Shown: positions 6,211 to 64,000 of the stretch, in pieces
How positions within the stretch are numbered: the stretch's first letter is position 1
How the letters are laid out: each line of letters opens with the position of its first letter
IMG/VR virus record: IMGVR_UViG_3300014059_000006
Span: 43,909-107,908 of that record
Direction: 5' to 3' (one strand)
Source of the DNA: a virus
Lineage: Duplodnaviria; Caudoviricetes
Length of the DNA: 64,000 nt
Notes under the pieces: generated by a model
What the model saw: the letters and a program-made list of their open reading frames with translations, nothing else
Told to the model about the DNA's origin: nothing
Database searches by the model: none
Position numbers and translations under genes: made by a program

Positions 6211-6747
6211 ATGCGAACATTTGACCCAAAAAAACCACGATTCCGTAAAGACAAAGGAACCACTATAAAAATAGTGAGTAAGGTTTTTTTTAAAAAGTAT
6301 AGAAAAAAATATAAAACATCATCAATAGATACATATGTAAAAATGAGAAACGTATTGGCAGTACTACATGAAAAGATAACAGACATTATTGCTACAGAAC
6401 GCGGAGGATTTGATTTAGCACAATTAGCAAATATTGTTACAGTTGCTTATACTCCATACACAAAAACTCTTCAAGATAAACATAAATATATTGATTACTC
6501 ATTGTCAAAAAATGTCGATAAAGTTGTAAAATATACAAATCTTCATACAGACGGTAAAGCGTGTCGTATATATTTTTCAATGGAATTACCAAAATATAAA
6601 TTTCTATATAGAAGGATGTGGGGGTTTACTCCCACACTTCCTTTTCGTAGAAAAGTTTCTCGTGAGTTTTCAAACAATTATTTACGATTTATAGAAGTGG
6701 AACATGGAGAATCAATGCGTAAAATATTTCAAACAACTTTTCAATAA
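6211..6747 (+). CDS. Basic IHF/HU-like protein of crAss-like phages
   Basis: 178-aa Lys/Arg-rich ORF directly before the tail ring genes, as in crAss-like gene order. Confidence 0.55.
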   Translation: MRTFDPKKPRFRKDKGTTIKIVSKVFFKKYRKKYKTSSIDTYVKMRNVLAVLHEKITDIIATERGGFDLAQLANIVTVAYTPYTKTLQDKHKYIDYSLSKNVDKVVKYTNLHTDGKACRIYFSMELPKYKFLYRRMWGFTPTLPFRRKVSREFSNNYLRFIEVEHGESMRKIFQTTFQ

Positions 6748-7412
6748 TGGCCCAAAAAACTATAGCCCAATATATATCCGGTATACGTGGAGACCTGAAA
6801 TTAAATAATGCTGATACGCGTATTGACGATAGGCATATCTATTTAAAAATGGTGGACATACGTGCTACACTTATTAATCAGTCTACGCAGTGGATAATGA
6901 GTAGTGTGGATATATTCCAGTCTTTATTTAAAACTGAATTGATAGAAGTAGATACTGTGGAAGCTTGTGGTGTTCAAACTAAATGTAAAATAAAAAGAAC
7001 TAAGGACAAACTCCCTATAATTTTAGAAGATGACGAGGGACCCTTGATAAAAAGAATAACATCGTTAGATGGAAGTATAGAATTAAATCCTATTACTTCT
7101 TCAGGATTTCTAAGAAAATTAAAAAAATCAACTTACAAATATGACAAGAACCATTACTTTTGGTTTTCTAATGGGTACGCATATTTTCCGGATATCGAAT
7201 GGGATTATGTTTTTATAGAGGCATACTTTGATGTAGATATTGAAAATGGATGTGAAGTGATAGATTATTGTAGAGATTTTCAGGAAAATAAATTTCGTAT
7301 TCCAGAAAGAATGGTAAATACGTTAGTTGCGATGACTACAGAAAGTTTATTAAAAACATATGTTCAAATCCCACAGGATACCAAAATGGACAAAAATGAA
7401 AATTCTAAATAA
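6747..7412 (+). CDS. Putative tail ring/tubular protein
   Basis: 221 aa, TAATG-coupled, with a C-terminal FRIPERMV..L.......L...QIPQD pattern typical of crAss-like ring proteins. Position supports the call. Confidence 0.6.
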   Translation: MAQKTIAQYISGIRGDLKLNNADTRIDDRHIYLKMVDIRATLINQSTQWIMSSVDIFQSLFKTELIEVDTVEACGVQTKCKIKRTKDKLPIILEDDEGPLIKRITSLDGSIELNPITSSGFLRKLKKSTYKYDKNHYFWFSNGYAYFPDIEWDYVFIEAYFDVDIENGCEVIDYCRDFQENKFRIPERMVNTLVAMTTESLLKTYVQIPQDTKMDKNENSK

Positions 7413-8269
7413 TGATAACTAAATATACTACTCAATATAAAACTTTTGAAAGTTTGATGGCTGATATAGAAGATGATTTAACTTCATTTTCTAATGAGAC
7501 TTATGTATATTCTGACAAATACATTAAGATTGTACAAACTTGCAATAGTAAACTTTCAACTAAAATTAATCCAATTAAGGAAGATGTTATAACGGTTACA
7601 AATAAAAAAGGAAAACTTCCTAAAGATTTTAAAGTGTTGGAACAAGTGTATGCCTGTGCCCCCACCACTATAATACAGTCTACATTGAATTTTAATAAAG
7701 AGGTTTGTCCTGCATATACTTTTTCAGAAGTACGTAACTGTTGTAATAATATTGCATACATAGAAGACCCTAGAAAGTTATTTAGTTTCGTGGTGTACAA
7801 ACAAGAAATAAAATCTCTAGTTAATGTCACTAGATTGTTTCCTGTTTCTATAATTAACTCTTTAAAATTCTGTAGTGCAAATTGCCCTACAAGAGCAACT
7901 ACAAATATCCAGATACAAATAGAAAGACAAGGAGATGATTTTTATATTCTCTCTGATTATGATGGGGAATTCTATATTTCCTATGTTTCTGAAATGGTGG
8001 ACGACGAAGGAAATCTTTTAATTTTAGACCATCCTTTAGTAATACCATATTATGAATACGCAATTAAAGAACGCATATTTGAAGATGTGTGGCTTAATGA
8101 TTTATTACAAGTTCAGAATAAACTTTCATATTTAAAAGAGAGTTTGAGAACTGCACAAATGGACGCATTACGTTTTGTTAGAACTTCTGATTTTGCAGAA
8201 CTAAAACAAGTTTATTTTGATAACAGAAAAAGATTTAAAATGAAATACAACGATATTATACAAGAGTAA
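7412..8269 (+). CDS. Tail tubular protein (P22 gp4-like Ttub, putative)
   Basis: 285 aa with GKLPKDF and ISY....DDEGNLLILD motifs, immediately before the large tail stabilisation gene. Confidence 0.65.
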   Translation: MITKYTTQYKTFESLMADIEDDLTSFSNETYVYSDKYIKIVQTCNSKLSTKINPIKEDVITVTNKKGKLPKDFKVLEQVYACAPTTIIQSTLNFNKEVCPAYTFSEVRNCCNNIAYIEDPRKLFSFVVYKQEIKSLVNVTRLFPVSIINSLKFCSANCPTRATTNIQIQIERQGDDFYILSDYDGEFYISYVSEMVDDEGNLLILDHPLVIPYYEYAIKERIFEDVWLNDLLQVQNKLSYLKESLRTAQMDALRFVRTSDFAELKQVYFDNRKRFKMKYNDIIQE

Positions 8270-21200: not shown

Positions 21201-24200
21201 GAAGAATTAGCTAGAGTAGAAAAAGTTCGTGATTATATAAGAAACAAGCTTACATACTACAATCAATTAAGAAAAGAACCGGGTATACGTTCTGTAAATT
21301 ATGAAAATATTATATACGGAAAAATCCAATTGTTAGAAACAAAATTAAAGTTTCTAACAAGTTTAATCAATAAAGTTAAAAAAGCGATTAGTCGTATGAT
21401 GGATGACTTACGTTATGTTACTGCACAACTAAGACAAAATGAAGCAGACATAATAAGCTATCCGTTAGATACCGAAGTTGATGCTGACTTAACCACAAAC
21501 AGAGAAAAACGTGCACCTTTACAACAAGAATTTACAAAACAAAAAAATAGAGTGAAGGCCCTTTCACGTACTGTAGAAAATACAAAAGATACAATTGAGT
21601 ATTTATATGATTTACTAGAGTGGGGAGAAAGAACTAATTCTGAAGAAATCGATACACCAATAGAAGAAATCAAAGCTCCAAAATTACAAACTCTAACAGA
21701 TAATATTTCCAACGAAGAAAAAGAAAAATTAATAGAATCTAAAGAAGAACAGATAAAAAAAATAGATGAGTTAATACAACAAAAAACTGACGAAGTTTTA
21801 GGTGCTGACGGGGTTATAGCCGAAATCGAAAAAGAAGAAAGCTCTGCAACTCCTAATCAAGCACGTCTACAAGTGTTGTACGAGAAGCGTGATAAGTTAC
21901 AAAAAGAAACTGCAGCACTCGCTACAAAAAAAGAAATAGTTAAGAATAGATTTGGAAAAGAAATAGTAAAGGAGGAAAAATATATAATTGATTCCCAAGA
22001 CCAAGTACAGAATACATTAAAAGAAGATTTAGATGTATCTTCTAAAATTGTAAAGAGTGTTTACCTATCAGGACTACATTATGTTCAAACAGAAGATGGT
22101 AAATATTATGTTGTTCCAAATGTGTCAGAAGGTTCTAATGGTATAACATCTAAAGAAGTGACACAAGCTGAAATTATAAAACCTTTCAGAACAAAAAAAG
22201 AATGGGACGAATTAGAAGTTAAAAAAGCTGATATAGAAAGAAGAAGACAAGAAGAATTAAACAATATAAAAAGTAAAGCAGAAATTGAAAAGTATTTTGC
22301 TAATAAATTTAAGAATGAATTCCCAAATGGAGTAAATGAAAGTGGTATTATTTCAATTCAAGAAGTATTAGAAAAATTACTTAATGAAGATGAACATAAA
22401 CTTATTGAACAGTATAGATATTCAAATATACTTAAAGATAAAATCAATGCTAAATATGATGCAGAATATGTAGATGCTGTTAAGAAAGGAGAGATGACTA
22501 AAGAGCAAGCTATGCAAGCTCTTAAAGAAGTAGGAAGAAAAGATAGCAAAGCTTATGCTGAACTAGCTGCTTTAGAAGCTAAACCTGCTGTTACACCTTC
22601 TGTTTCTGATAAGAAAGCTGAAATAGAAAAGAAAGCATACTTATTAAGTAAAGATTATAAAGATTTTGGTTGGCTAACAGAACAAGAAAAAAACGACTAT
22701 ACAGAATCTCAAAACAATTCAAAAAACAGAGAAGAAAGAGAAAAAGCCTATATAAAATTAAGAGAATTATATAAGTTAAAAGTAGATAAAGAGTTTATAG
22801 ATAGTATAGAAAAAGTACATTGGGTTAGAAATATTGAATCATTAATATCATTACTAGAAAAAGGAAAAAAAATACCTTTTGAAATATCAGCTGAGGGATA
22901 CTTGAATGAGTCTTTTAAAAGTGGATGGGGTAATGGGGTAGGCATTAAACTAAAAGGTGAAACATTAATTGCATCTAATGAAGATTTAAGAAGTGATAAC
23001 AAGTATGGTAGTATAGAAAACGGAGATTTTAGAAAATATTCATACGGAGACAATACATCCATAATATTAAATAAAGACACTTTTTTACCGCACAGATTAT
23101 TAGAATTTGAACAACGAGGTAAAAAATATCAAGGACACAATGAATTTTTATTAAAAAATAGTGAAATAGAAGCTATTGTTATTGACCCAACCAATGAAAA
23201 ATTAACAGAAGAGTTTAAATCAGAGGTTGAGAATATAGCTAGAAAATTTGGAATACCTATAATTGTAAATACTAAATACGATGCTGAACTAGCTGCTTCA
23301 GAAGGCACTTCTACTCAAGCTCCTACAACAGCTACTGTTTCTAATATAGAAGCTAAAAAAGAAGATATAGAAAAAAGAAGACAAGAAATAATATCTAAAT
23401 ATAATATAGAGTTTAAGGAAATAGCTAGAAAACAATACGATAAGGTTTCTAAAAAATATATTGATGGTATATCTACTCAAATATGGAGTAATGGTAAATT
23501 AATAGCAGAATATGAAACAAAAATAGAAGCAGAAAATGAACTAAATAGAAAAATAGATGCTTTAATAAATAACACTATTGATTCAAAAATTTCATTAGGA
23601 GATAATATTTTCATAGAAGGGATAACTGTTGATGGTAATACCTTTTCTGTTTTAAATACTTCTGAAAGAATGGTAACTATTGTTGACATAGGAGGTGTCA
23701 AAGTGCCCTTTTATTTAACAACAGGTTTGGGAGGTAAAAATTTAACACCTGCTTGGTATCCTATGTTTGGATATTCTCCTAGTGGATGGTTAAATAAAAC
23801 TGATGGGAAAGATATGGAGTCTTTTTACTCTAGGATTATAGGAAAAGAAGCATCAGATGTATTAAAAAAAGTATCTGAAAAATTAAATAATAAATTAGGG
23901 GTAACTCCTAACTCTATAATTGAATCAGGGATAGTAAGTAAACAACAAACACAAGAAGCTGTAAATTCAGTTTTAAATTTTACTCCTGCTGAAAATCAAA
24001 AAATAGATGCTTCTGTTGATTATAAAATAGAACTTGCAAAACTTGAAAATAATATTAAAAGTCTTGGAGAAGAAATCAATGCTAAATATGATGCAGAACT
24101 AAAAGCATTAAAACAACAATCTAATACACCTACTCAATCTGAAATAGAAGCTAAAAAAGCTGATATAGAAAGAAGAAGACAAGAAGAATTAAATCAACAA

Positions 24201-26984
24201 ACTGATGCTGGGTATTCAACTATTGCATTAGATTATCTATTTACAGGTGGAAGAGATGTAATTCTGTCTACTGATTATTTATTACAAGCATTAGTTGGTG
24301 GATTTACAAGTGCTGCTAAAGAAATAAATGATATTAGAAATAAATATGCTAATAAATTAGGTAATATTAGAGATGATATTAATTCTGATGTTTATAATCA
24401 AATGATGGGAGAAATTAGAAATGTTATAAGTAAAACTTATAATGATTCTAAAGCAAATGAAATATTTGATAAAATACTCAAAAATGCAACAGGATTTACA
24501 AATAGAGAAGGTAATCAAATAAGTATTGAGTTAGATAAATTAAATGAACAAAATGAATCTAAAATCAACGCTAAATATGATGCAGAACTAGCTGCTTTAG
24601 AAGAAGTAACACCTACAACAGAAACAAACCCTAATGTAGAAGCTAAAAAAGCTGATACAGAAAGAAGAAGACAGGAAGAATTAAATAAATATAGGAATGA
24701 TGCCATTGCTTTAGAAAATGCTAAAACAGAAGACGAAGCTATTGAAGCAATTAAATTGACAACTAAAGAAGATAATAAATGGAAAGCACTTTCCGCTGCC
24801 GAAAATATTATTGGAAAAAGTGGATTTAATGCTTTATTTCAACAAGATTGGAAAAAACAAACAAAAATACTTGCAGATGAAATTAATAGGATTCAAGCTA
24901 ATTTTATTGATAAAATAAATGCTAAATATGATGTAGAATTAGTTGCTTTAGAGACACCTATTTCTAAAATAGATTCTCCAGAAGTAGTTCAATTAAAATC
25001 GGCTAAGAAAAGTTTAACACTTGAAATAGACACTTTAATGGAAGAACCTTCTACAGAAGTGTTAGATGTACCCTCTAACGAAAATAATGTCGTACAAGGG
25101 TTGTCAGGTAGTGAAATTAACAATTTGGCAACATCTATTATAAACTCTCCTAATGTTTTCTTTGCAGGAATGGTTTTTAGAACTGCCGGTGAAGATATGG
25201 TTAAACGTGGGGACACATTTACATTAATAAGTGAACGTTCACCGATTGGAATATTGCGTGCAAAAATTCGTAATGCAATTATGCGGCGTTCTATAGGGTC
25301 TAGTAAAACTCTAAGTGATATAGGAATTCATATTACAATACAAAAAGATAAGGATGAGTTTCATCCCGAAGGAGAAACAGTTCGTGAACGTCAATTCTTT
25401 TTAGATAATAAAAACAAACCATCTCATCCTATCGTTGCTGTACTAACTGATATTAACGGCGAAACTTTATATTTTGATGAAGATGGAGACAAAACAACAA
25501 AAGAAAAAGGAACACCTATTGTACAACAGATTTTTGAAGTGGACGTTGATACTGCTTCACGAACATTACAAGGACGTAAAGAAGACCGTATTCAAGAACG
25601 TATACGTGTCCTAACTTTACAGAACTTATTCAGTGGTATAGAAATAACTCCTGAAGATACAAAACGTATAACTGACGAGGTGAATGAAGAATTTAGAATG
25701 CTTTCTGAATTAAAATCTCACATAAGAAATACAGATGAAAAAATAACTGTAAATAACGCTTCAATATCAAGAGGATTTACAGAAAAAAATAATATTGTTC
25801 TTGTACCAAATGACGCATTGGTTGATAAAGAAAACGCAAAGGTGAGTGTAGAAACTGTTACAATTAATAATGGTGGAACAAACGTAACAAAGGGTATTGT
25901 ATATTACAACGGGTTTCCTATGTTCATGCCAAAGTTAAGTGAGGGTTCTTTGTTTGATACAATTAAAACAATTCTTCAAACAAGAGTTCCCTATGATAGT
26001 TTCGAACGTTCTTCTCGTCAGGCATTTTTGAGAAAAATTTTATATCGTCGTACAGAAGAACATCCTAAAGCGGTGACAAAAGTTTCTTATGATTACGAAA
26101 ATGAAAAAATAGTGGTAATGTCGGGAGAACAGATTCTTTCATTAGAAGAACTTATGAGTAGAAATCTTTCATTAAACGTTGATAAACAATTGTTTGATGA
26201 AAATCAATCTTTTGTTGAATATGTAGCCAAACCGGAATTTAACGACAGGGATGAGAGAATGCCTAATATGAAATTAGTAGCTCTTCCTGCAGTTCCTTAC
26301 CAAGATTATATAAAATCTAAAGGATATGTTTTTATGACAGAGTCAGAACTAGAGTCTCAGACTAAAAAATTAGGACCAACCCCTAGATACAATATTGTAT
26401 TTGGAATGAATCCTTCTGAAACAATGTCTAAAATAACTCCTGTTTCTACAGAAACATCTGCACCTAATCCCAATGATTTATTGTCTGTAGATGACTTGTT
26501 AAGTGAAGAAACTACTCCTGAAGTGGGAACCGCTCTTCAAAACGCATTTGCTGTATTTACCGCACCGTCTACTCCTGCCCCAATAAAACAGTTTAATGTG
26601 GGAGATAAATTTAAACTACTGTCTAAATCTCTTTCTCAGGAAAAAGGTTCACCAGTGTATGTTGAAATAAAATTAATTGAAGAAATTCCTAATACAGCAG
26701 AAGATGTAAAATTCTCAGTGGAGCAAACATACGAAGGAGTTTCTACAATGAGAACCTACAAAAGTAGTACTATCGAACAAGGACTGTCTGACCCACTTGC
26801 TGAAAAATTAGAAAGTGCGGAAACATTAAACGTGTTTGATATGTTCACAGAAACAACCCCTATGGATGAAATTATGGATAGAGAATTAATAAAATCAGGT
26901 GTATTAAAAAAAGGAACTACAATGGAAGATTTGATAAATACATTAATAAGTCGTAATATTGTAGAAAAAATTTGTAAATTTTAA
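18219..26984 (+). CDS. Giant virion cargo protein (vRNAP-associated) with an internal cassette array
   Basis: 2921 aa with a Gly/Ala-rich membrane-like N-terminal segment, an EGVEEGAQY motif and coiled coils. It lies directly upstream of the vRNAP. Confidence 0.75.
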   Translation: MPDNFSSFANKVAPVTSTPSRLGTEGLVAWKDTNASRYTNDPNWKMLGYDMNRNNDYAYDVAQTSGQWASSAFNRFLHPLKTSFVEGFRYDKTAKELLFSGSVAEDEGLREYLKKSEELSYLYPTYDNPNSSDEGFFSYFNAGARNKWSTLLESSGFMVGTAGAGIAQSIVLGLVTGGAGTVASLAKTADATGKAYRLSKLASAYKQMDKVNDLWKMSKVGKLVGASPTLQAIDGLTDIAKARTLSQYAKASGKFLGNSAIRFQATSSEAMLEAIEGSEHFKKQQIEQFELKNGREATKEEKDDIENYAADVFSARYRANLGVLSVTNLVQDLSFFNTYKYISKLGKSGAIAEEAAKKWNWNAKAGIAMKHSALPLKERALFEIKAVGNSFFKNAFMEGVEEGAQYAIGKSTDDYYTKKYNKESASFMDSMARGISSTFLDKEGKESFWSGIMMGGLFSTIGKGAKTVHGMATGKGAKIDAMVSEQMTNYNQAHKNLIETFKTEQVLSAEAENGTLNHVNNTLVEEALENNDLDKAKELRLQSLRNSVKTAKEVGKLDLLKKSLSEYGELQDDVFREKFGVTSKQTNKEIVNETLREIEEIEKTVDAVNERYGNPYDGYDNIDPITAADKRAEQHNLYKGYEEAKMTVIDNVETLKESKKNLSKISEWFTGQGVVVEDVLLELVPEQITLGGVEFDSAVLARDEKIENLGRQFADLEKLKQTSTNTSEIIRVTQTQAELLKERDIYVNLNNNPDSLGAILDYFNFQIGKSKKGLPIDATDSTEFKTSLEENIKGLRDNLEKSKNALEALDALEKPKVFEALAKDYAKAYDKRYGQIISDLDANEQEAKAATEEVVPEETPEETIGTPVTPESPVETATPIEPEEGPMFPIPPYTPKESTKPQPKHVLLQKIVQVEKELDEITHVTNSLLSTKVRLTNLLQKEIAELKPVLEKLARTVVDSNTMYFISNYEELRDAEIRLQADVDKLTDELNIVSEELARVEKVRDYIRNKLTYYNQLRKEPGIRSVNYENIIYGKIQLLETKLKFLTSLINKVKKAISRMMDDLRYVTAQLRQNEADIISYPLDTEVDADLTTNREKRAPLQQEFTKQKNRVKALSRTVENTKDTIEYLYDLLEWGERTNSEEIDTPIEEIKAPKLQTLTDNISNEEKEKLIESKEEQIKKIDELIQQKTDEVLGADGVIAEIEKEESSATPNQARLQVLYEKRDKLQKETAALATKKEIVKNRFGKEIVKEEKYIIDSQDQVQNTLKEDLDVSSKIVKSVYLSGLHYVQTEDGKYYVVPNVSEGSNGITSKEVTQAEIIKPFRTKKEWDELEVKKADIERRRQEELNNIKSKAEIEKYFANKFKNEFPNGVNESGIISIQEVLEKLLNEDEHKLIEQYRYSNILKDKINAKYDAEYVDAVKKGEMTKEQAMQALKEVGRKDSKAYAELAALEAKPAVTPSVSDKKAEIEKKAYLLSKDYKDFGWLTEQEKNDYTESQNNSKNREEREKAYIKLRELYKLKVDKEFIDSIEKVHWVRNIESLISLLEKGKKIPFEISAEGYLNESFKSGWGNGVGIKLKGETLIASNEDLRSDNKYGSIENGDFRKYSYGDNTSIILNKDTFLPHRLLEFEQRGKKYQGHNEFLLKNSEIEAIVIDPTNEKLTEEFKSEVENIARKFGIPIIVNTKYDAELAASEGTSTQAPTTATVSNIEAKKEDIEKRRQEIISKYNIEFKEIARKQYDKVSKKYIDGISTQIWSNGKLIAEYETKIEAENELNRKIDALINNTIDSKISLGDNIFIEGITVDGNTFSVLNTSERMVTIVDIGGVKVPFYLTTGLGGKNLTPAWYPMFGYSPSGWLNKTDGKDMESFYSRIIGKEASDVLKKVSEKLNNKLGVTPNSIIESGIVSKQQTQEAVNSVLNFTPAENQKIDASVDYKIELAKLENNIKSLGEEINAKYDAELKALKQQSNTPTQSEIEAKKADIERRRQEELNQQTDAGYSTIALDYLFTGGRDVILSTDYLLQALVGGFTSAAKEINDIRNKYANKLGNIRDDINSDVYNQMMGEIRNVISKTYNDSKANEIFDKILKNATGFTNREGNQISIELDKLNEQNESKINAKYDAELAALEEVTPTTETNPNVEAKKADTERRRQEELNKYRNDAIALENAKTEDEAIEAIKLTTKEDNKWKALSAAENIIGKSGFNALFQQDWKKQTKILADEINRIQANFIDKINAKYDVELVALETPISKIDSPEVVQLKSAKKSLTLEIDTLMEEPSTEVLDVPSNENNVVQGLSGSEINNLATSIINSPNVFFAGMVFRTAGEDMVKRGDTFTLISERSPIGILRAKIRNAIMRRSIGSSKTLSDIGIHITIQKDKDEFHPEGETVRERQFFLDNKNKPSHPIVAVLTDINGETLYFDEDGDKTTKEKGTPIVQQIFEVDVDTASRTLQGRKEDRIQERIRVLTLQNLFSGIEITPEDTKRITDEVNEEFRMLSELKSHIRNTDEKITVNNASISRGFTEKNNIVLVPNDALVDKENAKVSVETVTINNGGTNVTKGIVYYNGFPMFMPKLSEGSLFDTIKTILQTRVPYDSFERSSRQAFLRKILYRRTEEHPKAVTKVSYDYENEKIVVMSGEQILSLEELMSRNLSLNVDKQLFDENQSFVEYVAKPEFNDRDERMPNMKLVALPAVPYQDYIKSKGYVFMTESELESQTKKLGPTPRYNIVFGMNPSETMSKITPVSTETSAPNPNDLLSVDDLLSEETTPEVGTALQNAFAVFTAPSTPAPIKQFNVGDKFKLLSKSLSQEKGSPVYVEIKLIEEIPNTAEDVKFSVEQTYEGVSTMRTYKSSTIEQGLSDPLAEKLESAETLNVFDMFTETTPMDEIMDRELIKSGVLKKGTTMEDLINTLISRNIVEKICKF
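22221..24953 (+). repeat. Array of five variable inserts, each bounded by KKADIERRRQEEL and INAKYDAELAALE repeats
   Basis: Left repeats start near 22221, 22611, 23355, 24153 and 24645. Right repeats lie near 22441/22551, 23271, 24072, 24561 and 24912. A 41-nt stretch is identical at 22221 and 24153. Confidence 0.9.
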
Positions 26985-26985
26985 A

Positions 26986-29900
26986 ATGGCGAATAATTGC
27001 TTATATAAATATAATGGTGTTTTATACACCGAACCAGAGTTTAAACAATTACTAAACAGTAATTTATTACAGTTTGTATATTCTTTGGATAGTGCGGATA
27101 TAAATAATATTTTAGACCCTGCTTTCCAATTTATGGAACAAGACGAAACATCTTGGATTAATACCATTTTTAAAACGTCATATCCAAAAGAAATACAAGA
27201 CCGTGTAAAGTTCTTATATACCGTTGTTAACTCTAACAAATGGGGGACATGGGGACCGGCAGGTATAACTTTGTATAAAAGTTCTGCTCGTGGTACAGGA
27301 TATCACGAAGCATGGCACGAATTTTCCCAAATGTTCTTGACAAAGGATGAAAAGATTTCTTTATATAAAGAAGCGATTGTAAACATTCCTGCACTTAAAG
27401 ATTTAAATTATAAAAAACTAAACGACCTTCGTCAAATAGAAGAACATTTAGCAGACGATTTTATGAAGTACATGTTGAATGATGAATTATTTGGAGATAG
27501 TTTATTAGTAAACCGTCAACCAGTTCGTAATTCAATTTTCAGAATTATTTTAAATTTCTTAAAAGGATTGTTTGGGGTAAACAAACAAAACGAAGATGTA
27601 TTTTTAAATCGTCTAAATACTTTATATTCTAATTTAAGAAATGGAGAGTTAGATAATTATCAATTTTCTGTAGACAATATTTTATTCAACGAACAACTAC
27701 ATAGAAAAATAGAAGGGTTTGATAACTTGTCTGCAGTGTTGAAAAATAAAAGCGAAGTGGGAACTATGATGAAAGTTATGGGACACTTTGACGCGTTGAT
27801 TACTGAAGTGATAAAAAACAAACAAGTGGAATTAACCAAATTGTTTGCAGACCCTAAACTTAAAGTGTATGTGTACACACACGTAAAAAATAGACTTAAA
27901 CAAGAATTAAAAACAGTTCGTCTATCTCCAGAAGCCGTTGAGATGCGTGAATTTATTTTAGCTAATTTTGGAGAGTTTGTGAAAGCTCATGATGAAAAAG
28001 GTTCTTTAAAATTTGCTATCAGTGATGTTAGTGATATCGAAAACGTTATAAAAATATTAGATTCTAATGACGATATAAACAATGATAATGAAGAAGATGA
28101 TGACCATGTAGATAATTCATCTTCTGGTCGTGACAAAGCTTGGGATAAATCAGGAAATGAAGAGGATTCGAAAGACATTGCTTCTAAGATAATTCGTTTT
28201 ATGGTGGCATCCTTACATAACCGTAGATTTGCTACCCCAGAAGAACAGAAACAAGGTAAAAAGAAATTAGAAGAATATCGTCAAAGTCGTCTACAAGGTG
28301 TAGAAGATAATGAAACAATGTTAGCTATAAATGACGAGGTAGACAAATTAGAAGAAGAGAATAATTATAGATATATTTCCGACGCATTAGGGTTAAAAGA
28401 ACTTGTTAATTTTAACACTGTATGGAATATGTTACAAACCGAATTACAAGGGATGGATAACTATTCTGATATGTATAGAAAAATTGAAGCATTAAGTGTA
28501 GATAAGGTTTATCTTTTGGACTTGTTAAAACTCCTTCCTTCTCCGAACAAAGAAGTTTATACACAAGACGAGTCACATATTTCAAATCGTTTTAGAACTG
28601 ACTTCATGCGTGTAAAAAATCCTATACTGATTAACAGTATGGTGGTGGAAAGAAACGAAGAGGGAGATGTTAAACAAGTTCGTATTGACTTATTGTCTGC
28701 TAATAAATTAGGTATCAAAACTGTACGTGAAACATTTTATCAAAAATGGCTTGAGACAAAATCGGCTAAAGAAAACTTTGTTACAGAAAAAGATGATGAG
28801 ATAATTTTTGATTTTGATAAGTTTGCCGAAACATTTTATGGAAAAGATGGAGATGAGAATTTTAAAAATATTTATTTATTTAAAAATGCCGAAAGTCTAA
28901 GTGAAGAATTTGGAGAAGGAAAGATAGATAAAATTTATAACAATCGTATAACATTTCTAAATGCTTTTGGTTTTATATTTTCAGACCAAACTGTAAAAAC
29001 CCAAGAGTTCAAAGATTTTATAATGAATCGTGTATTCATGGAAGACCAGTTAGGAAAATATTTATTTAATGATATTGCTAATCTTATAGAATATAGAAAA
29101 AAAGAAGGTGCATTTATAATAGATAATTTAGCTCCCGGTACTTCAAAAAGTGATAGAGAAAAAGCTTTAGAAACTCTTCCTATAATAAAAAACCCTTTAG
29201 ATTTTTTCAGAACGAAACGTGTATTTCGTTATTCAGATAGAAGTATAAAAAACCCTGTCATACTAAACGGAAACTCTAACAAGATGGACGAGTTGTATAA
29301 TTTTGAAATTCTACATTCTGGACAATACTTCAACGAAGCTACATACACAGCAACACAAAAAATTCAATTTGAAAACTCTATTTATAATACATTCTTTATG
29401 TATTTAAACGGACTGAACGATGCTGTTAAATACCCCACATATCAATCTTTAGTTGCGGAAGGAAGTCCTTACGAATATAATTATAACATAGACCGTAATC
29501 CACATTTAAGAAGTTCTATATGGTTTAATAGTATGTTCGAATTAGATGTACCAGAAGGTACTCCTCGTTACGGAAAACGAAGAATCCAACGTATAAAAAA
29601 ACAAGGACTTGTAAACAAAACAAACCATGTAACAGTGGATTTTGTAAACTTGAGTGGTATGTCTATAAACGACCGTACCGCCAATAATTTTGAAGGACAA
29701 AATACAGTTAAACTTGAAACATTGGATAGAATGATATCTTCCATTAGTTCTTTATTAACAACAGGTACTTCTGAATTAATGCGTCATGCTGATAAATCTA
29801 TGGCTTATGGTATTAGACCTACATCCATGTTTATCAACGGTTCTTATACAGGAGATAAAAATATATTTTTCGAATTAAAATCTGACTTGACAAGTGGTGA

Positions 29901-32900
29901 TTTTGTATCTACTATTTTCAACACTGATAAAGAAACTAACAATTTACATAATGTATTTGCAGGATATTTAAAATCCGAAATGGAACGTATTTTTAAAGTG
30001 CGTATGTTAGAGAAATCTGGAAATAATGAGTTCATAGATAAAAAGATTTCTGGTACAGAACGTAAACGTTTACAAGGATTTATTTTATTTGACAAACTTC
30101 TTTCTGTAGATGTTAAAAATGCATTATATGAAAAAATTGAACAAATAGTTAATTCTAAAGAAGCAAATTTATATGCCGAAAAAGGTAATTACCAAGGAGG
30201 ATTAGAAGTTTTACTAGATGAAATGATTTCAACTCCTGTATTTGTAGAAGAAATTAATAAAAATGTTTCTCGTCTTAATCCTGAAATAACTTTAAGTATT
30301 GCCACATATCTAGACCAATCTACGCAAGATTATGAAAAGCGTATGATTGAAAAAGGATATATTAAAAATACATTAGGTAAGTTTCTTCCTTCGTCTTTGT
30401 CGGTTGATGATACTTCTGTTATAAGAACTTTTATTTTAAATCAGTTTATACATAACGTAGAGCAATCTAAATTGATTTATGGAGACCCTGCGTTTTACAC
30501 TGCACCATTTAAACGTCTTCCGATGTTTACTTCTACAGGAGCGATGCCAAACGTAAGTGCAGAACATATTGCTCAAATGAATAATGATGTTAATCTAAAT
30601 GCATACACAAAAGCATTAGGATATAATTCTATTCCTTTTTCAGACAAAGTTAAAAGTACTGTACTAAGTGATGTTGAGTTAGATACAAAAGTTTCTGATA
30701 GATGGAAAAAAGCATTTGAAATTTTAAAAATGACTCCAGAAGCAATTGAAAAATTAACTTCAGACTATTCTGATGTTAACGAAGCGGATGCTCAGGGTAT
30801 GGCAACTATTGATTTTTATAGAAGTTTTAAAAAGTCAATAGGATTTTGGTACGATTCTCACGAGAATGCGTATAACAAAATGGTGGAATACGAAAAGAGT
30901 AAAAAAGAATTTGGTAAAAATCCTACAAAAAATCAAATAAAACAATTAGAAGGGTTACGTTTAACTGCAGAAGAAGAAGGACTATTCCCGCCTATTAAGT
31001 TGGGATATGGTGGTCCATTAGTAAATGAACACTTATATGCTCCGACATATCATAAGTTTTCTATTTACCCAATTCTTCCTTCTATGACCGAAGAAAATAA
31101 TAACTTGAATAAAATCAACAGAAAACTTCTAAGAGAAGGAATAAGTTATTTAACATTTGAGTCGGCAAGTAAAGTGGCAAATACAGGAAAGAATGGAAAA
31201 TTCCAACCTTTATATTCTGATGTTGCTACAAGAACATTAAATGATGCTAAATTTCATCCTACAGTTACGTTATTAAAATATTATAAAGAACAATTACAAA
31301 TAGAACCAAAAGATGAAAGAAGTATGACTTTTGGTACACAGTTCCGTAAACTTTTGTTTTCTAACTTATATGAACACGGATATCCTACAGATTTCGTTTC
31401 TACCTCTCCTGAATCAGATTGGGATAGAATGTCTGAAGAAGAACGAATTAATGCATCAGAGATACATAAGAATCATCAGGGATACCTTAAAGTGTTAAAT
31501 AATGTTGCCGAAATTGAATTAGAAAAGTTATTAGAAGAAATTGGAGGAACACAAAATTCAAACGGTGAAATCGTAATAAATGATTTTAGGAAATTAAAAG
31601 ACATGGTGATTAACGAAGCTAAAAAGAAAGAAGCTCCTGATTCACTAGAATATTTTTTCCAAATCAACGAAGATGGGTCATTAAAATACCCTATTGAAAC
31701 TTCTAAAGATAAAAAAATCATACAAGATATTCTTTTATCTCTTGTAAACAATCGTCTTGTTAGATTAAAAATCAATGGTGCAAATCTTGTTCAAGCTGCA
31801 CAAACCGGTCATGAACGTTATGATGGAAAAACCTATTCTGACACATTAGAAGGATACAGGGTTGAAACAACTCCTGAAGGTAAGTTTATATTACGTCCTA
31901 TGGAAGTGGAAGTTTCATTTAACAACTCTTATAGAGGTACATTAAAACTTATTCATCCTGACGGTAAAGTTGTTAAAACAGTTAAACGTTTGAATGAAGC
32001 TATGCGTAATGCTGAGTGGTACGAAACCCATAAAGATTATTTTTCTTTAGTTGGATATAGGATTCCTACACAAAGTACAAACTCAATTGCGTACATGGGA
32101 ATTAAACAATTTCTTCCTAAAAACTCTATGAACTTAATTGTACTTCCTTCTGAAATTACAAAAATTGCAGGTTCGGATTTTGATATTGACAAGATGTCTG
32201 TAATACGTCCATACTTTAATAAACGTGGAGAAATACTTAGACCATCTGAATTAAATCTGTCACGTGCAGAACTGAAAGAAAATATTGCAGAACTAGAAGA
32301 AGAATTGACAGATTTAAGAAATTCTAAAAAACGTTTTAAAGGTGATGTAAATAAAGCTCTATCAAAAATACAAGACCAAACCGCAACAGTTTCTGATTGG
32401 GCAATTTATAAATATAACACTGAAGAAACATCTCAGAAATTAGAAGTTCTATTAGACGAAGAAGAAGAAATTTTAAATCTTATAGATAATAGTTATGATT
32501 CTGATATGGCAGAACTATTCCAAAAATCAGGACTAGTACAACAAACAGAAAAAAATGAAGAACAAGATACATCTTCTTTAGAAGCAAAACTTAACTATGT
32601 ACAGAAACAAATAGATAAGATTTCAGAATTTGCCGAAACAATGAACTCTTATGTAGATGATTATAATGCGCTTCCTGAAGAAACTATTTCAGCAATTGAA
32701 ACAGAACTAGAAGGATATATGGAATGGTTTGCTCAATTGGATGAGAAACGTATAAAATTAGAAGATTTAAAAGATGCGTACGCACATCAAAAAGAAGCAC
32801 AATTTAATAATTTATTAGACATTGCGAAAAACTCCATAAGTAGAGAAGATAAATTTATAGACTTGGTTACACCTAACTCTGTAGATATAGTAAAGAAACA

Positions 32901-35364
32901 ATTAGCCGACCCTATTAAAGAATGGTTAACTGTGTCAGGACAAGAAAGTTTTGCTCAAGAAAGTAATACTACAGATATTTTTAATCCTGCATATGAAGAC
33001 GAGGTATATGAATCTTTCTTACAAGGAAAATCTACATTAGGAATCGCAGCACTTGCTGGACCATTGTCACAAATTTTCCAACGTACCGGTGCTTATGTAA
33101 ACCCTGTGTATCATTTGAATAAACAACAGTATGACACCGTTGTATTGTTAAATACAAACAAAAGAGAAATTAGTAGAAGGGGTGAAACAATAACAGTTTA
33201 TGACTTAGCATCTAGATACGATAGTGAAGGAAAAATATTAAAATCAGAACTCATTGCTCAGTATATAAATGCATATGTGGATATCGCGAAAGAACCTTTT
33301 GTGTTCTATATGAACGCAGGTATTAACGTGGCACCTGTTATGATGTATATGACACATTTAGGAGTACCTGCAAAACAATCAGCTTACTTGGTGAATCAAC
33401 CTTCTATACGTGATTATATTAAACGTAAATCTGTTCAGGCATCTTATACTAACAGATATACAAACGAAATGTCTAAAAAAGAAGAATACACAAAAATGCA
33501 TTCTTTAATAGAAACATTTAATAAATTTGTAATAGGTGACGAAAACATAAAAGACATTGGAGAGTATATAACAATCAATCCTAAAAACAACCAAATACGT
33601 AAAATAGATTTTGGTAGAATTTATGAAGAGTTTAATACATATTTAAAAAATAATGCTCCACAATATGAAAAACTTCTTTCACAAGAAAACCTTGAAAAAA
33701 ATATAAAAGGAGAACTATCCGAAGAAGAAAGTAAAAATACATCTATGGCTGCATTTTTACAATACACAATGTTGGAAAATCAGTCAGCGTCTTTAAGAGA
33801 AATAAATGATGTATTGAAGTCTGATACGACAATGTCAAAAAGTACAACTTCTGCCGTTCAACATACTAAAAAAGTTCAACAATATAAAAACAATAAAATA
33901 CAAGGGATACTTCCTGCAGAAGTAATATCTAAAATATTATCTTCTACAGAAATAACTCCATATGTTGTTCAACCTAAAATTGCAAGTATGTATTCAGGAA
34001 TAGAAAAAGTTCAAAACCATCCCGTAATTCAACAACACTTGGATGAACTTTTAAATATGGGTAGAACTAAAAAATCTCCGGTAATACAAGAGAAAATCAT
34101 TAAAGATTATTTTAGTGATTTAAATTCCTTTATTTTACAAAATCACGGAGTTCAATTTAATGAAACTAAAAATACTCCTAGAACATTAGATTCTTTATGG
34201 CCCTTGATGATTAATGATAAATCAAAACGTCTAAAGAAAAATAAAGAACTGTATAAAAAAGAAATAAAGAATATTGTTACACGTTTAAATGATTTACATG
34301 CTAAATACAATGGGGTAAATTCACCTATAAATCTTCGTACAAGATATCAAATCTTTAACGGATTAAAGGTTTATAATAGTGAGGAAACAAATTTACGTTC
34401 TATTGCTTGGCAAGGTGAACCATTGAAAAAAGATTTAATCAATATGCTTTCAGAAGAATGGACAAAATTAGCAAACTTGAACGACCCTAAATTTGCGGAT
34501 ATAAAAGAATTTATGATTGACTTAGCTAAGGTGGTGTTTTTAACTCATGGAGAAACTCGTTCGTCTAAATCATTTTTTGCTCTAGTTCCTTCTGAATTAC
34601 ACACATCGTTTATGCTACCCTTTATTGAAGATTTCCTTTCTGAAATGAATGTCGTAGGGTCAAACTATTACCAATTGTTTACAAAATTTTTCAATGATGA
34701 TTTCATGGGAAATAATAAACAGTATTTCAAAGGTAGAGGAACTGACAAAATAAATGATGGAAGATTTAAACAGTACAGAAGGGATTCTTCTTTTGCTAGA
34801 GATTATATTTTAACTGCACATCCTAAAGTAGAAAAAATTAAACGTGAATTTGTTTCCGACCCTATGGAAAGTGGAGACGAAAGAAATGATAATGAAACAG
34901 TAAGTAAGATTAATTTCAAACCAACTCCGGCAGAACAAGATTTAATGTCCGAGGTGGAATCTATCCTTTCTCAATCAGACATGTCAAAATTTGAACCACA
35001 AGTAAGAGAAACATCTATGGATGAAAAATATGAATACTTCAAAAGTTTAAATAAAAATACCCTGACAAAAAAAGAATTAACAGGTGTGAATAATGTTATT
35101 GACGTATTACAAAAATATAAAGTGATACAACAAGATAAATTGAGGGCCAGTATACCTGTCACTCCGACGTTTAACCCTGACTTTTTCCAATCGGTCGACA
35201 GTTTGTTCCAAACTGATTTCTCAGTGGATTTGGCAATGTCAAAAATAAAAGTTAACTTTGAAGAGTATAAAGACGCTTTAAAGGAAGAAGGAATTAATTC
35301 TATAGAAGAATTGGAATCCTATCCAGATAAAAATAATTTTGTTTTAAAAATTTGTAAATTATAA
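26986..35364 (+). CDS. Virion-packaged DNA-dependent RNA polymerase (crAss-type) with N-terminal zincin-like domain
   Basis: Catalytic GSDFDIDK (DFDIDK at 32176-32193) preceded by GYRIPTQ. Also has ADAQG, an N-terminal YHEAWH...EEHLAD zincin motif and AYVDIAKEP. Confidence 0.92.
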   Translation: MANNCLYKYNGVLYTEPEFKQLLNSNLLQFVYSLDSADINNILDPAFQFMEQDETSWINTIFKTSYPKEIQDRVKFLYTVVNSNKWGTWGPAGITLYKSSARGTGYHEAWHEFSQMFLTKDEKISLYKEAIVNIPALKDLNYKKLNDLRQIEEHLADDFMKYMLNDELFGDSLLVNRQPVRNSIFRIILNFLKGLFGVNKQNEDVFLNRLNTLYSNLRNGELDNYQFSVDNILFNEQLHRKIEGFDNLSAVLKNKSEVGTMMKVMGHFDALITEVIKNKQVELTKLFADPKLKVYVYTHVKNRLKQELKTVRLSPEAVEMREFILANFGEFVKAHDEKGSLKFAISDVSDIENVIKILDSNDDINNDNEEDDDHVDNSSSGRDKAWDKSGNEEDSKDIASKIIRFMVASLHNRRFATPEEQKQGKKKLEEYRQSRLQGVEDNETMLAINDEVDKLEEENNYRYISDALGLKELVNFNTVWNMLQTELQGMDNYSDMYRKIEALSVDKVYLLDLLKLLPSPNKEVYTQDESHISNRFRTDFMRVKNPILINSMVVERNEEGDVKQVRIDLLSANKLGIKTVRETFYQKWLETKSAKENFVTEKDDEIIFDFDKFAETFYGKDGDENFKNIYLFKNAESLSEEFGEGKIDKIYNNRITFLNAFGFIFSDQTVKTQEFKDFIMNRVFMEDQLGKYLFNDIANLIEYRKKEGAFIIDNLAPGTSKSDREKALETLPIIKNPLDFFRTKRVFRYSDRSIKNPVILNGNSNKMDELYNFEILHSGQYFNEATYTATQKIQFENSIYNTFFMYLNGLNDAVKYPTYQSLVAEGSPYEYNYNIDRNPHLRSSIWFNSMFELDVPEGTPRYGKRRIQRIKKQGLVNKTNHVTVDFVNLSGMSINDRTANNFEGQNTVKLETLDRMISSISSLLTTGTSELMRHADKSMAYGIRPTSMFINGSYTGDKNIFFELKSDLTSGDFVSTIFNTDKETNNLHNVFAGYLKSEMERIFKVRMLEKSGNNEFIDKKISGTERKRLQGFILFDKLLSVDVKNALYEKIEQIVNSKEANLYAEKGNYQGGLEVLLDEMISTPVFVEEINKNVSRLNPEITLSIATYLDQSTQDYEKRMIEKGYIKNTLGKFLPSSLSVDDTSVIRTFILNQFIHNVEQSKLIYGDPAFYTAPFKRLPMFTSTGAMPNVSAEHIAQMNNDVNLNAYTKALGYNSIPFSDKVKSTVLSDVELDTKVSDRWKKAFEILKMTPEAIEKLTSDYSDVNEADAQGMATIDFYRSFKKSIGFWYDSHENAYNKMVEYEKSKKEFGKNPTKNQIKQLEGLRLTAEEEGLFPPIKLGYGGPLVNEHLYAPTYHKFSIYPILPSMTEENNNLNKINRKLLREGISYLTFESASKVANTGKNGKFQPLYSDVATRTLNDAKFHPTVTLLKYYKEQLQIEPKDERSMTFGTQFRKLLFSNLYEHGYPTDFVSTSPESDWDRMSEEERINASEIHKNHQGYLKVLNNVAEIELEKLLEEIGGTQNSNGEIVINDFRKLKDMVINEAKKKEAPDSLEYFFQINEDGSLKYPIETSKDKKIIQDILLSLVNNRLVRLKINGANLVQAAQTGHERYDGKTYSDTLEGYRVETTPEGKFILRPMEVEVSFNNSYRGTLKLIHPDGKVVKTVKRLNEAMRNAEWYETHKDYFSLVGYRIPTQSTNSIAYMGIKQFLPKNSMNLIVLPSEITKIAGSDFDIDKMSVIRPYFNKRGEILRPSELNLSRAELKENIAELEEELTDLRNSKKRFKGDVNKALSKIQDQTATVSDWAIYKYNTEETSQKLEVLLDEEEEILNLIDNSYDSDMAELFQKSGLVQQTEKNEEQDTSSLEAKLNYVQKQIDKISEFAETMNSYVDDYNALPEETISAIETELEGYMEWFAQLDEKRIKLEDLKDAYAHQKEAQFNNLLDIAKNSISREDKFIDLVTPNSVDIVKKQLADPIKEWLTVSGQESFAQESNTTDIFNPAYEDEVYESFLQGKSTLGIAALAGPLSQIFQRTGAYVNPVYHLNKQQYDTVVLLNTNKREISRRGETITVYDLASRYDSEGKILKSELIAQYINAYVDIAKEPFVFYMNAGINVAPVMMYMTHLGVPAKQSAYLVNQPSIRDYIKRKSVQASYTNRYTNEMSKKEEYTKMHSLIETFNKFVIGDENIKDIGEYITINPKNNQIRKIDFGRIYEEFNTYLKNNAPQYEKLLSQENLEKNIKGELSEEESKNTSMAAFLQYTMLENQSASLREINDVLKSDTTMSKSTTSAVQHTKKVQQYKNNKIQGILPAEVISKILSSTEITPYVVQPKIASMYSGIEKVQNHPVIQQHLDELLNMGRTKKSPVIQEKIIKDYFSDLNSFILQNHGVQFNETKNTPRTLDSLWPLMINDKSKRLKKNKELYKKEIKNIVTRLNDLHAKYNGVNSPINLRTRYQIFNGLKVYNSEETNLRSIAWQGEPLKKDLINMLSEEWTKLANLNDPKFADIKEFMIDLAKVVFLTHGETRSSKSFFALVPSELHTSFMLPFIEDFLSEMNVVGSNYYQLFTKFFNDDFMGNNKQYFKGRGTDKINDGRFKQYRRDSSFARDYILTAHPKVEKIKREFVSDPMESGDERNDNETVSKINFKPTPAEQDLMSEVESILSQSDMSKFEPQVRETSMDEKYEYFKSLNKNTLTKKELTGVNNVIDVLQKYKVIQQDKLRASIPVTPTFNPDFFQSVDSLFQTDFSVDLAMSKIKVNFEEYKDALKEEGINSIEELESYPDKNNFVLKICKL

Positions 35365-62759: not shown

Positions 62760-63264
62760 ACTCTTCTATATTTTTTATAAATACATCGTGTCGAGAAGAA
62801 ATATAAGAATAATTTAAACGAAATGCTTCGTACGCTTCTAAGGAATTATAAATAGTACTTCGGTCACGACAAATAAGTTTTCCTATTTGTTTAAAATCCA
62901 AAGATGTATATTTATTCAACCAATAAACTAACGCATGTCTTACGCCCATAATATCAACTTTTCTACTATCAGAACGTATGTCTTCTATTGAAACACTGTA
63001 GATTTTACAAACAAGTTTTATTATAATTCTAACATCTTCCGCAGATTTAAAAATTCGTTTGATATTAATTCTACCGTTAACAGTCAAATGCATCGCAATT
63101 TTTTCGTGAAATTCTGTAAAACTAACTTTTTTCAGTTCTTCTCTAATCCAATTGTCTGCTTTTTGTTGTTTTACCACCCCGGCACCATGATAAGGTGTAT
63201 TTATTAAACGTATAAGAGCATCTTCTTCTCCGTTATTGAATAAATGGTATTGAGCATTTTTCAT
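62752..63264 (-). CDS. Protein with DnaA C-terminal (domain IV) HTH
   Basis: II..VC..Y.VS.EDI.S.SR...I...RH...Y.....T.L....IG....RD.STI. The start is uncertain (63264 or 63288). Confidence 0.75.
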   Translation of the reverse strand: MKNAQYHLFNNGEEDALIRLINTPYHGAGVVKQQKADNWIREELKKVSFTEFHEKIAMHLTVNGRINIKRIFKSAEDVRIIIKLVCKIYSVSIEDIRSDSRKVDIMGVRHALVYWLNKYTSLDFKQIGKLICRDRSTIYNSLEAYEAFRLNYSYISSRHDVFIKNIEEYV

Positions 63265-64000
63265 AAATATCTTTTTTAATTTCTTCACATAATTCAGGGT
63301 TGTCTTTTAACACTTGAAAAGCTTTGTCTTTACCGACATCAAGTTTTGTACCCTTATATGAATAAGTTGTTTTATCTTTTTCAATTATTTCATATTGAAG
63401 ACCTAAATCAAATATTTCAGCAACTTTATCGATACCCATTCCATAACGAATATAGAACTCAGCTAAATTAAAAGGAGGTGCCACTTTATTTTTTATAACT
63501 TTAACTTTAGTTAGGTTTGCAACCTTCACTTCGTTTTCAGTTATAGAATTAGCTTCAGTGGTACTTCGTCTTACATCTAAACGTACAGAAGCATAAAATT
63601 TTAAAGCATTTCCACCGGTTGTAACTTCAGGACTTCCAAACATAACTCCAATTTTTTCACGTAATTGATTAATAAAAATTAATAAACAATTACTTTTATT
63701 GACTTTTGTTGAAAGCATACGCATAGATTGTGACATCATACGAGCTTGAAGTCCTATTGTACTATCACCAATTTCACCTTCAATTTCTTTTTTAGGAACT
63801 AAAGCGGCAACAGAATCAATTACTATTACATCAAACATTTGTGTATCTAATAACGTCATACAATAGTTTAACGCCTCTTCTCCGCTCTCAGGTTGAAAGA
63901 ATTGTAGTTCTTCTATGTTAATCCCTGTCTGAGCAGCATAAACCTTGTCAAACGCGTGTTCTGCGTCAATAAATGCAGCAAGTCCTCCATTGCGTTGAGT
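63233..64000 (-). CDS. recA: RecA recombinase (5' end outside the window)
   Basis: Open to the window end: AFIDAEHA.D, VIDSVAALVP..EIEG, GLQARMMSQ, FINQLREKIGVMFGSPE.TTGGNALKFYASVRLD and KNKVAPPF. Confidence 0.97.
   Translation of the reverse strand, partial: TQRNGGLAAFIDAEHAFDKVYAAQTGINIEELQFFQPESGEEALNYCMTLLDTQMFDVIVIDSVAALVPKKEIEGEIGDSTIGLQARMMSQSMRMLSTKVNKSNCLLIFINQLREKIGVMFGSPEVTTGGNALKFYASVRLDVRRSTTEANSITENEVKVANLTKVKVIKNKVAPPFNLAEFYIRYGMGIDKVAEIFDLGLQYEIIEKDKTTYSYKGTKLDVGKDKAFQVLKDNPELCEEIKKDIYEKCSIPFIQ

Follow-up and report, generated by a model that had tools for sequence, protein, structure and literature searches.

Within a 64,000-nt stretch of a phage genome (hereafter the window; positions 43,909 to 107,908 of the 107.9-kb IMG/VR virus record IMGVR_UViG_3300014059_000006, whose source is a wastewater metagenome) lies a giant open reading frame (ORF), P0001 (18219..26984, plus strand), which encodes 2921 amino acids (aa) and carries in its middle part five tandem cassettes, each with its own insert between two recurring flanks. 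The protein starts with an N-terminal backbone (aa 1-850), followed by a P/T/E linker and coiled region, the cassette array (aa 1335-2245) and a C-terminal backbone (aa 2250-2921). Other P numbers denote proteins related to P0001, L001-L029 are other loci or contigs, and L1-L5 and R1-R5 are the flanks of the five cassettes.

The five-cassette array of P0001

All five units follow the same grammar, in which a helix L (KKADIERRRQEEL-like) is followed by an insert and then by a helix R (INAKYDAELAALE-like). The L flanks start at aa 1335, 1465, 1713, 1979 and 2143 (nt 22221, 22611, 23355, 24153 and 24645) and the R flanks at aa 1410, 1684, 1954, 2117 and 2234, all on the plus strand. Cassette 1 (22221..22577) comprises L1 (22221-22259), an insert (~22260-22442) and an R1 interrupted by a nested 30-aa module (22467-22556), which leaves two halves (22443-22466 and 22557-22577). 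Cassette 2 (22611..23303) opens with a degenerate L2 (22611-22634), whose agreement with the motif is limited to its first 8 residues, and closes with R2 (23265-23303); cassette 3 (23355..24113) extends from L3 (23355-23393) to R3 (24075-24113), cassette 4 (24153..24602) encloses a predicted all-alpha insert between L4 (24153-24191) and R4 (24564-24602), and cassette 5 (24645..24953) encloses a helical insert between L5 (24645-24683) and R5 (24915-24953). The inserts measure ~57, 203, 223, 120 and 73 aa, respectively, and the four linkers (22578-22610, 23304-23354, 24114-24152 and 24603-24644) are T/S/P-rich and 10-17 aa long. An initial annotation of the window had described five repeat-bounded, unrelated inserts joined by short P/T/S linkers; the five cassettes and the linkers are there, with the amendment that L2 is degenerate and R1 split. 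As for the inserts, whose mutual homology would have counted against the initial annotation, BLAST among them found no significant similarity (best pair i1/i3, E 0.001 over 45 aa), and an apparent similarity of cassette 2 to cassette 3 was rejected as a MAFFT artefact of the misaligned whole-giant-protein alignments A2 and A3. Neither flank occurs in any other ORF of the window, in six frames.

The module nested in R1 is also found in the phage contigs L001-L004, where its DNA is 83-91% identical. A 30-aa module nested within R recurs in L001, L003, L004 and L026, with an HExxH region ~100 aa downstream of it in L001 and L004. At L004:6340-6560 (aa ~1265-1325 of a 4646-aa ORF) it is the L flank itself that is interrupted, by an insert of ~38 aa, so that nesting can occur within either flank. 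As regards composition, cysteine is absent from the 911 codons of the array (22221-24953), compared with 93 among the 12,304 other codons of the large genes of the window.

Bracket-bearing proteins in other phages

A bracket profile (A5), built from small and empty brackets and searched against 1.84 billion proteins at E<=1e-3, matched 556 representative proteins, with P0001 at the top (193 bits, six stretches), and a search with the array region of P0001 retrieved 88 giant proteins that have one or few cassettes in common with it. When flank hidden Markov models (HMMs) were run on 235 collected proteins, 226 of them gave any flank match. Successive flanks followed the order LR 262 times, RL 77 times, LL 13 times and RR 7 times; L was the first flank in 199 of the 226 proteins and R the last in 212. 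The gap from R to L has a median of 11 aa, and the short R-to-L junctions (<=25 aa, n=55) contain 22% T, 16% S and 10% Q. A single L..R pair is found in 170 of the 226 proteins and five cassettes in only three, P0001 among them, where the flank HMM counts four cassettes and the degenerate L2 supplies the fifth. Brackets number 1-5 per protein and their relative position spans 0.22-0.91 (5th-95th percentile).

The sequences enclosed are diverse. Inserts of 30-400 aa (n=246) fall into 127 BLAST clusters, 91 of which are singletons, and insert lengths range from 13 to 342 aa, with a median of 86 aa and many helical members. Pfam domains lie exactly within brackets in P0005 and P0145 (ART-PolyVal) and in P0012 (AAA_33), and bracket-bearing relatives carry ART-PolyVal, Kinase-PolyVal, InPase, LPD23 and LPD38. 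More than 100 insert clusters other than those of P0001 are bracketed, whereas the initial annotation would have had to be withdrawn if the flanks never enclosed other domains. There are also empty brackets, consisting of L, a loop of 12-25 aa and R, which suggests that the basic unit is a ~50-aa hairpin with domains nested in its loop, rather than a linker module or the two ends of one family. The R flank is near-invariant, I, N, A, K, Y, D, E and L each being the commonest residue in ~70% of 269 copies. A YHE(A/G)FH motif shares the polypeptide with the brackets in 20 of the 235 proteins and frequently lies a short way downstream of the array.

In cellular genomes the brackets turned up at only six loci, each of them in a metagenome-assembled bin, with the bins scattered over different taxa; these are probably misbinned phage contigs. 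A search for cassette 4 as a stand-alone gene yielded nothing beyond one fragment of 170 aa and another, of 246 aa, with two cassettes.

Exchange of single cassettes

Single cassettes of P0001 recur at 85-94% protein identity in proteins whose N-terminal backbones are ~22% identical to that of P0001, a level at which its N-terminus resembles many giant phage proteins. At the DNA level, cassette 4 is shared with L026 (96.9% identity, window positions 24139-24587), L029 (91.5%, 24149-24686) and L006 (90.6%, 24146-24603), and cassette 3 with L028 (92.6%, 23344-24101) and L027 (92.2%, 23367-23919). In all five of these unrelated contigs the homology blocks begin and end at flank edges; the block of L026 terminates within R, at the point where the plain and split R forms switch between the two sequences. 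Similarity of the whole window to the compared loci is confined to 22100-25000, plus two short matches at 27292-27399, in the HExxH region of the following ORF.

Neither the set of inserts nor their order is kept among relatives, whereas identical inserts in identical order would have contradicted the initial annotation. P0024, whose backbone comes closest to that of P0001 (44% identity at the N-terminus and 30% at the C-terminus), contains a single cassette instead of five; P0004 carries cassettes 4 and 3 in reversed order; and P0005 has an ART cassette in place of cassette 1 of P0001, upstream of the common cassette 2. In P0003 there is a perfect tandem cassette duplicate (330/330 nt, L025:5970-6626), which reflects an assembly repeat or else unequal crossing-over that happened very recently. 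Homologues of cassette 2 are 59-72% identical in P0003 and P0005-P0009, cassette 4 has 26 homologues in other backbones, and cassette 5 is found in P0085 (48%) and P0083 (37%); the wider family of cassette 3 was aligned in A4. Exchange of cassettes between phages is thus well supported, and single inserts traded exactly at the helices L and R indicate that these helices mark a shared pool of domains that are probably delivered by phages.

Codon usage and conservation of the flanks

The array differs in codon usage from the gene that hosts it. Arginine is encoded by AGA or AGG in 32 of 33 codons of the array versus 38 of 79 in the remainder of the P0001 gene (Fisher p 2.5e-7), and the GC content at third codon positions (GC3) is 0.104 in the array versus 0.190 in the rest of the gene, with a shift that spans ~aa 1250-2250 and the lowest values of the gene in cassette 4 (0.03-0.07). 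The inserts of other loci favour AGA too (79 of 90 arginine codons). Since other phages' inserts share this preference, the cassettes look as if they came from a shared low-GC3 pool, foreign to the P0001 backbone. The foreign origin proposed in the initial annotation from the AGA/AGG bias is supported by these figures.

With respect to the flanks as DNA, the 41-nt stretch at 22221 recurs at 24153 with exact identity, as had been annotated, and the annotated repeat at the right ends is equally real, the 13-mer GCTAAATATGATG in R being present in four exact copies versus 0.09 expected from shuffles. Between flank copies within P0001, the same codon is used at a rate of 0.94 in L (0.76 expected) and 0.75 in R (0.69 expected), and the DNA identity of the flanks inside this gene is mostly explained by codon bias. 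Between phages, with expectations taken from insert codon usage, the corresponding rates are 0.90 versus 0.69 for L and 0.81 versus 0.64 for R, and the Ala, Ile and Leu codons of the flanks are almost fixed. The proposal that the repeats serve as recombination handles therefore keeps its support from the homology blocks ending at flanks and from the excess of synonymous conservation between phages, and loses most of the support that had been drawn from DNA identity within the gene.

Predicted structure of the bracket

An AlphaFold model of cassette 4, obtained with 24 homologues in the alignment, has a predicted local distance difference test score (pLDDT) of 91 and a predicted template modelling score (pTM) of 0.83. 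In the model a helix at residues 3-21 corresponds to L, a helix at residues 125-160 ends in R (both at pLDDT 86-96), and an all-alpha domain lies between them. The best matches of this model in VIA-align are two-helix hairpins, ~45 residues long, whose alignment extends from residue 1 to residue ~166 of the model (root-mean-square deviation 1.7-2.9, Z up to 6, Z being in the common range), which is possible only with L lying antiparallel against the last helix at its R end. Indirectly, therefore, the model points to a hairpin in which the two flanks run antiparallel. A complex prediction that paired the L and R pieces of cassette 4 gave no answer (score 0.13, mark 0.32) and counts neither way. 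The helical hairpin stalk postulated in the initial annotation accordingly fits the cassette 4 model, the hairpin matches and the empty brackets, all of which speak to it indirectly. For cassette 3 the model is poor (pLDDT 56); it places a long helix before a beta-rich core and further helices, and its structure search was dominated by the long helix.

Searches for family, fold and function gave few leads. P0001 and its neighbours had no match above cut-off in Pfam or PHROGs (NTase_sub_bind reached 16 bits, with a cut-off of 31.8), and sequence and profile searches against the PDB found nothing. Foldseek returned no match at E<=0.001 for the cassette 4 model in the PDB or BFVD, and the ESM Atlas gave no usable match for cassettes 2 and 3. 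Of the five cassettes, only cassette 4 scored in PADLOC, with LmuA (18 bits) and SIR2 (15 bits), neither of which was credited. By tblastn against 50,697 phage records, the array had no match, the sole match of aa 1-850 was one cyanophage hypothetical protein, and no match to the gp47-like cargo protein of crAss001 emerged at this level of comparison. Close relatives of the backbone were found neither in the protein collection (1606-5112 aa) nor in viral contigs or JGI metagenome contigs.

Integrity of the assembly

Contigs of four public runs (X1-X4) were placed on the region, the uncovered stretches in X1, X3 and X4 being uninformative. In X2, a second sample, all pieces over 21293-26200 match without differences at a depth of 5.5-7.8; one contig of 1665 nt joins R1, cassette 2 and cassette 3, and another of 3064 nt joins R4, cassette 5 and the backbone. 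Identical pieces at equal depth in this sample argue against a chimeric assembly. In X4, from another study, cassette 2 is present with 6 differences in 682 nt and with different sequence on either side, the backbone not being covered; X3 yields a 3184-nt contig that has 8 differences from the C-terminal backbone and aligns from 24911, where R5 starts, onwards.

The contigs of all four runs break at flanks, where depth rises up to 462 compared with ~10-60 elsewhere, an indication that many cassettes of these communities share the flanks. The source sample contains two alleles of cassette 4 side by side. An in-frame alternative junction from an R3-like sequence to the linker before L5 (24100 to 24616, plus 14 nt) occurs at depth 11 in X1 and 5 in X2, which is about the depth of the phage itself, and it could represent a variant without cassette 4 or another phage. 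Most of the L1-to-R3/R4 joints seen in the runs were set aside as other cassettes with the same flanks, not deletions.

Genomic setting of P0001

Upstream of P0001 lie genes for the crassvirus tail ring proteins 2 and 1 (6747..8269, plus strand); PF25702 (CrAss_Ring_2) scores 63.7 bits, above its cut-off of 27, and PF24228 (CrAss_Ring_1) only 20.9 bits, below cut-off. They are followed by a 1575-aa ORF (8269-12996), also upstream of P0001, which matches PHROG virion structural proteins and has no Pfam muzzle match. Ring and muzzle genes beside giant cargo genes are the order typical of Crassvirales, and the ring matches place P0001 in a crassvirus virion module. At the locus of a relative, crAss_MUZ lies upstream and LPD23 downstream.

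In crAss001, giant and largely helical proteins are encoded after the ring, muzzle and cargo genes and were detected in virions by mass spectrometry; they are expected to pass the tail by extrusion with partial unfolding (PMC10172136). By gene order, P0001 occupies the position at which crAss001 encodes its giant virion cargo proteins. Packaging and ejection of P0001 would follow from this gene order and the comparison with crAss001 (PMC10172136).

The next giant ORF (26986..35364, plus strand, 2792 aa) contains HExxH at aa 107 (nt 27304-27318) and DFDID at aa 1731. Pfam, peptidase families included, gave no match for it; judging by the motifs, it possibly encodes a metallopeptidase-like N-terminus fused to a virion RNA polymerase.

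Discussion

Taken together, these findings lead us to regard P0001 as probably a giant crassvirus virion-module protein of the polyvalent-protein kind, with a middle part made up of five hairpin sockets. In such a socket, the N-terminal amphipathic helix L and the C-terminal helix R would pack antiparallel as a two-helix stalk, with an unrelated domain nested in the loop at its tip. Because an antiparallel stalk makes the chain enter and leave the cassette at one point, any insert could be gained, lost or replaced without disturbing its neighbours, while short flexible linkers would tie the cassettes together. At the genetic level, the DNA coding for L and R, alike in many otherwise unalignable phages, would allow homologous recombination within these flanks to move whole cassettes in frame between giant proteins during co-infection, and the P0001 array would have been assembled in this way from a shared low-GC3 cassette pool.

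We consider it likely, albeit far from certain, that the bracket has this double role, the hairpin closing the ends of the insert and the flank-coding DNA providing the homology for in-frame cassette transfer in co-infection. This interpretation builds on the observed bracket grammar, insert diversity, cassette-wise homology blocks and foreign codon usage. The pairing of L with R is predicted from one model, recombination is the exchange mechanism that we infer from the block ends, and the inserts would be effectors delivered together with the DNA. A wider formulation, in which the bracket serves as a dedicated socket for in-frame insertion, with the DNA that encodes it acting as a recombination handle as well, and in which uncultured crassviruses of wastewater, sludge and freshwater share a community-wide pool of small injected domains with its own codon usage, is more tentative, and we would put it at somewhat less than an even chance.

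Several points weigh against the socket interpretation. No PolyVal or LPD domain of Pfam is present in P0001 at E<=0.1, and none of the five inserts could be assigned a fold or function with Pfam, PHROGs, PDB, PADLOC, Foldseek or VIA-align. The contact between L and R is read from model confidence and from the residues that the hairpin matches span. The synonymous excess in the flanks could reflect shared descent instead of selection for recombination; it carries no formal p-value, and the flank pairs are not independent. Brackets are not obligatory, as the related giant protein P0060 has unbracketed domain(s) and the domain of cassette 3 lacks canonical flanks in L017 and L018. The near-invariance of R exceeds what a generic hairpin would need and hints at a further function. 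Finally, repeats of this kind could mislead short-read assembly.

The last point bears on one alternative, namely that the five-cassette array is a chimera in which the assembler joined cassettes of several phages at their repeated flanks. Contig breaks and depth spikes (to 462) at the flanks in all four runs would be expected in that case, as would the two cassette 4 alleles in the source sample, but the pieces of X2 match without differences at similar depth and are linked by the 1665-nt and 3064-nt contigs, the reading frame stays open over 8.7 kb, and similar arrays are found in independent assemblies (P0003 and P0070); we regard an artefact as extremely improbable. Nearly as hard to sustain is the notion that L and R are the conserved end helices of a single fast-evolving domain family, or generic coiled-coil spacers, with inserts that are divergent homologues and have never been exchanged. 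Most inserts are indeed small and many are helical; however, the range of insert lengths (13-342 aa), the bracketing of folds as unrelated as ART-PolyVal and AAA_33, the all-alpha model of cassette 4 as opposed to the beta-rich core in the low-confidence model of cassette 3, and the sharp disagreement between cassette and backbone identities make this very unlikely.

Two other explanations could coexist with a socket role. The bracket may be kept mainly for binding or as a signal, either for docking to the capsid interior, the portal, DNA or other brackets, or as a unit for packaging, ejection or refolding, cassette exchange then being a by-product. In line with this notion, R is more conserved than hairpin formation requires, empty brackets are retained, and crAss001 cargo proteins must partly unfold to traverse the tail (PMC10172136); on the other hand, no partner is known, and brackets are found at any relative position and in numbers from 1 to 5, so that we hold a primary role of this kind to be unlikely, though deserving of attention. 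Alternatively, the flanks or linkers may be processing sites at which a polyvalent-type metallopeptidase cuts the polyprotein between cassettes and frees the domains. The HExxH at aa 107 of the next ORF and the YHE(A/G)FH motif past some arrays would suit such a scheme, and autoproteolysis has been proposed for polyvalent proteins (PMC5512222). Nevertheless, the HExxH region lacks a Pfam peptidase match, most bracket-bearing proteins have no motif of the YHE(A/G)FH type, the linkers are variable, and two conserved helices of ~13 residues far exceed what a cleavage site needs; proteolytic release as the purpose of the flanks thus appears rather improbable.

Polymorphic toxins such as CdiA, Rhs and their relatives have conserved pre-toxin motifs and spare cassettes. 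They resemble P0001 in that a conserved coding motif at the edge of the variable domain serves as homology for domain swapping. Their handle, however, is one-sided, at the C-terminal tip, and comes with immunity genes and secretion domains, whereas that of P0001 is two-sided, with cassettes that are internal and in tandem and with following ORFs that are giant virion-module genes; the window showed neither immunity genes nor orphan cassette genes. Gene cassettes of integrons are likewise unrelated units with a common repeat boundary drawn from a community-wide pool; they differ in relying on an integrase and on attC DNA sites that lie between separate genes, while the boundaries in P0001 are translated helices within one ORF, for whose cassettes no dedicated recombinase was identified.

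The closest counterparts of P0001 are polyvalent proteins, described as giant mosaic proteins of phages and conjugative elements whose domains are thought to accompany the DNA (Iyer, Burroughs, Anand, de Souza and Aravind, 2017; PMC5512222). Like P0001, they are very large proteins of mobile elements made up of many domains, and their repertoire of effector-type domains changes rapidly. P0001 is likewise phage-encoded, as indicated by the IMG/VR virus record and the CrAss_Ring_2 match upstream, and where polyvalent proteins have two to fifteen effector-type domains it has five mutually unrelated inserts, none matched to a known domain. It differs in having no PolyVal or LPD Pfam domain, although relatives that share its cassettes do have such domains. 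The paper that defined polyvalent proteins mentions polymorphic toxin systems as a parallel and describes no conserved bracket, the words linker, coiled and boundaries being absent from its text (PMC5512222). New with respect to polyvalent proteins are the proposed two-sided hairpin socket, which holds nested inserts, its arrangement in tandem arrays and an exchange bounded by the flanks. The crAss001 cargo proteins share with P0001 the same kind of gene order and differ in that no cassette arrays are reported for them (PMC10172136). Full-text searches of the literature found no published description of the bracket motif, nor of a crassvirus with a polyvalent protein.

Mosaic polyvalent proteins are known, but the route by which their domains are shuffled in frame is not, and a two-helix socket would supply both a structural and a genetic mechanism for it. 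If the socket-pool formulation is true, the cassettes would be a protein-level counterpart of integron cassettes, and any metagenomic L..R pair would flag a candidate phage-delivered effector. In practice, the simple sequence rule of L, anything and R harvests hundreds of small domains that are probably delivered at the first moment of infection, and the 127 insert clusters obtained from only 235 proteins are natural candidates for anti-defence and host-takeover functions. Additionally, protein engineering could use the socket as a natural scaffold into which domains are inserted.

Other features of the window

The phage RecA that the initial annotation placed in the same window is confirmed; its gene (63233..64000, minus strand; PF00154, E 2.2e-79) is truncated by the window end. 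A collagen-like tail-fibre protein of 1775 aa (41970-47297) has 13 collagen-repeat stretches and strong GC skew, and its gene explains both this skew and the jump in GC content to 0.41-0.45, compared with ~0.30 elsewhere. A 556-aa protein (48007-49677) combines methyltransferase and family 2 glycosyltransferase domains. A GIY-YIG homing endonuclease with NUMOD-like domains (55423-56190) lies among small phage genes, and a pair of calcineurin-like phosphoesterase (Metallophos) genes on the minus strand (59388-60104 and 60471-61166) has a 125-aa ORF between its members.

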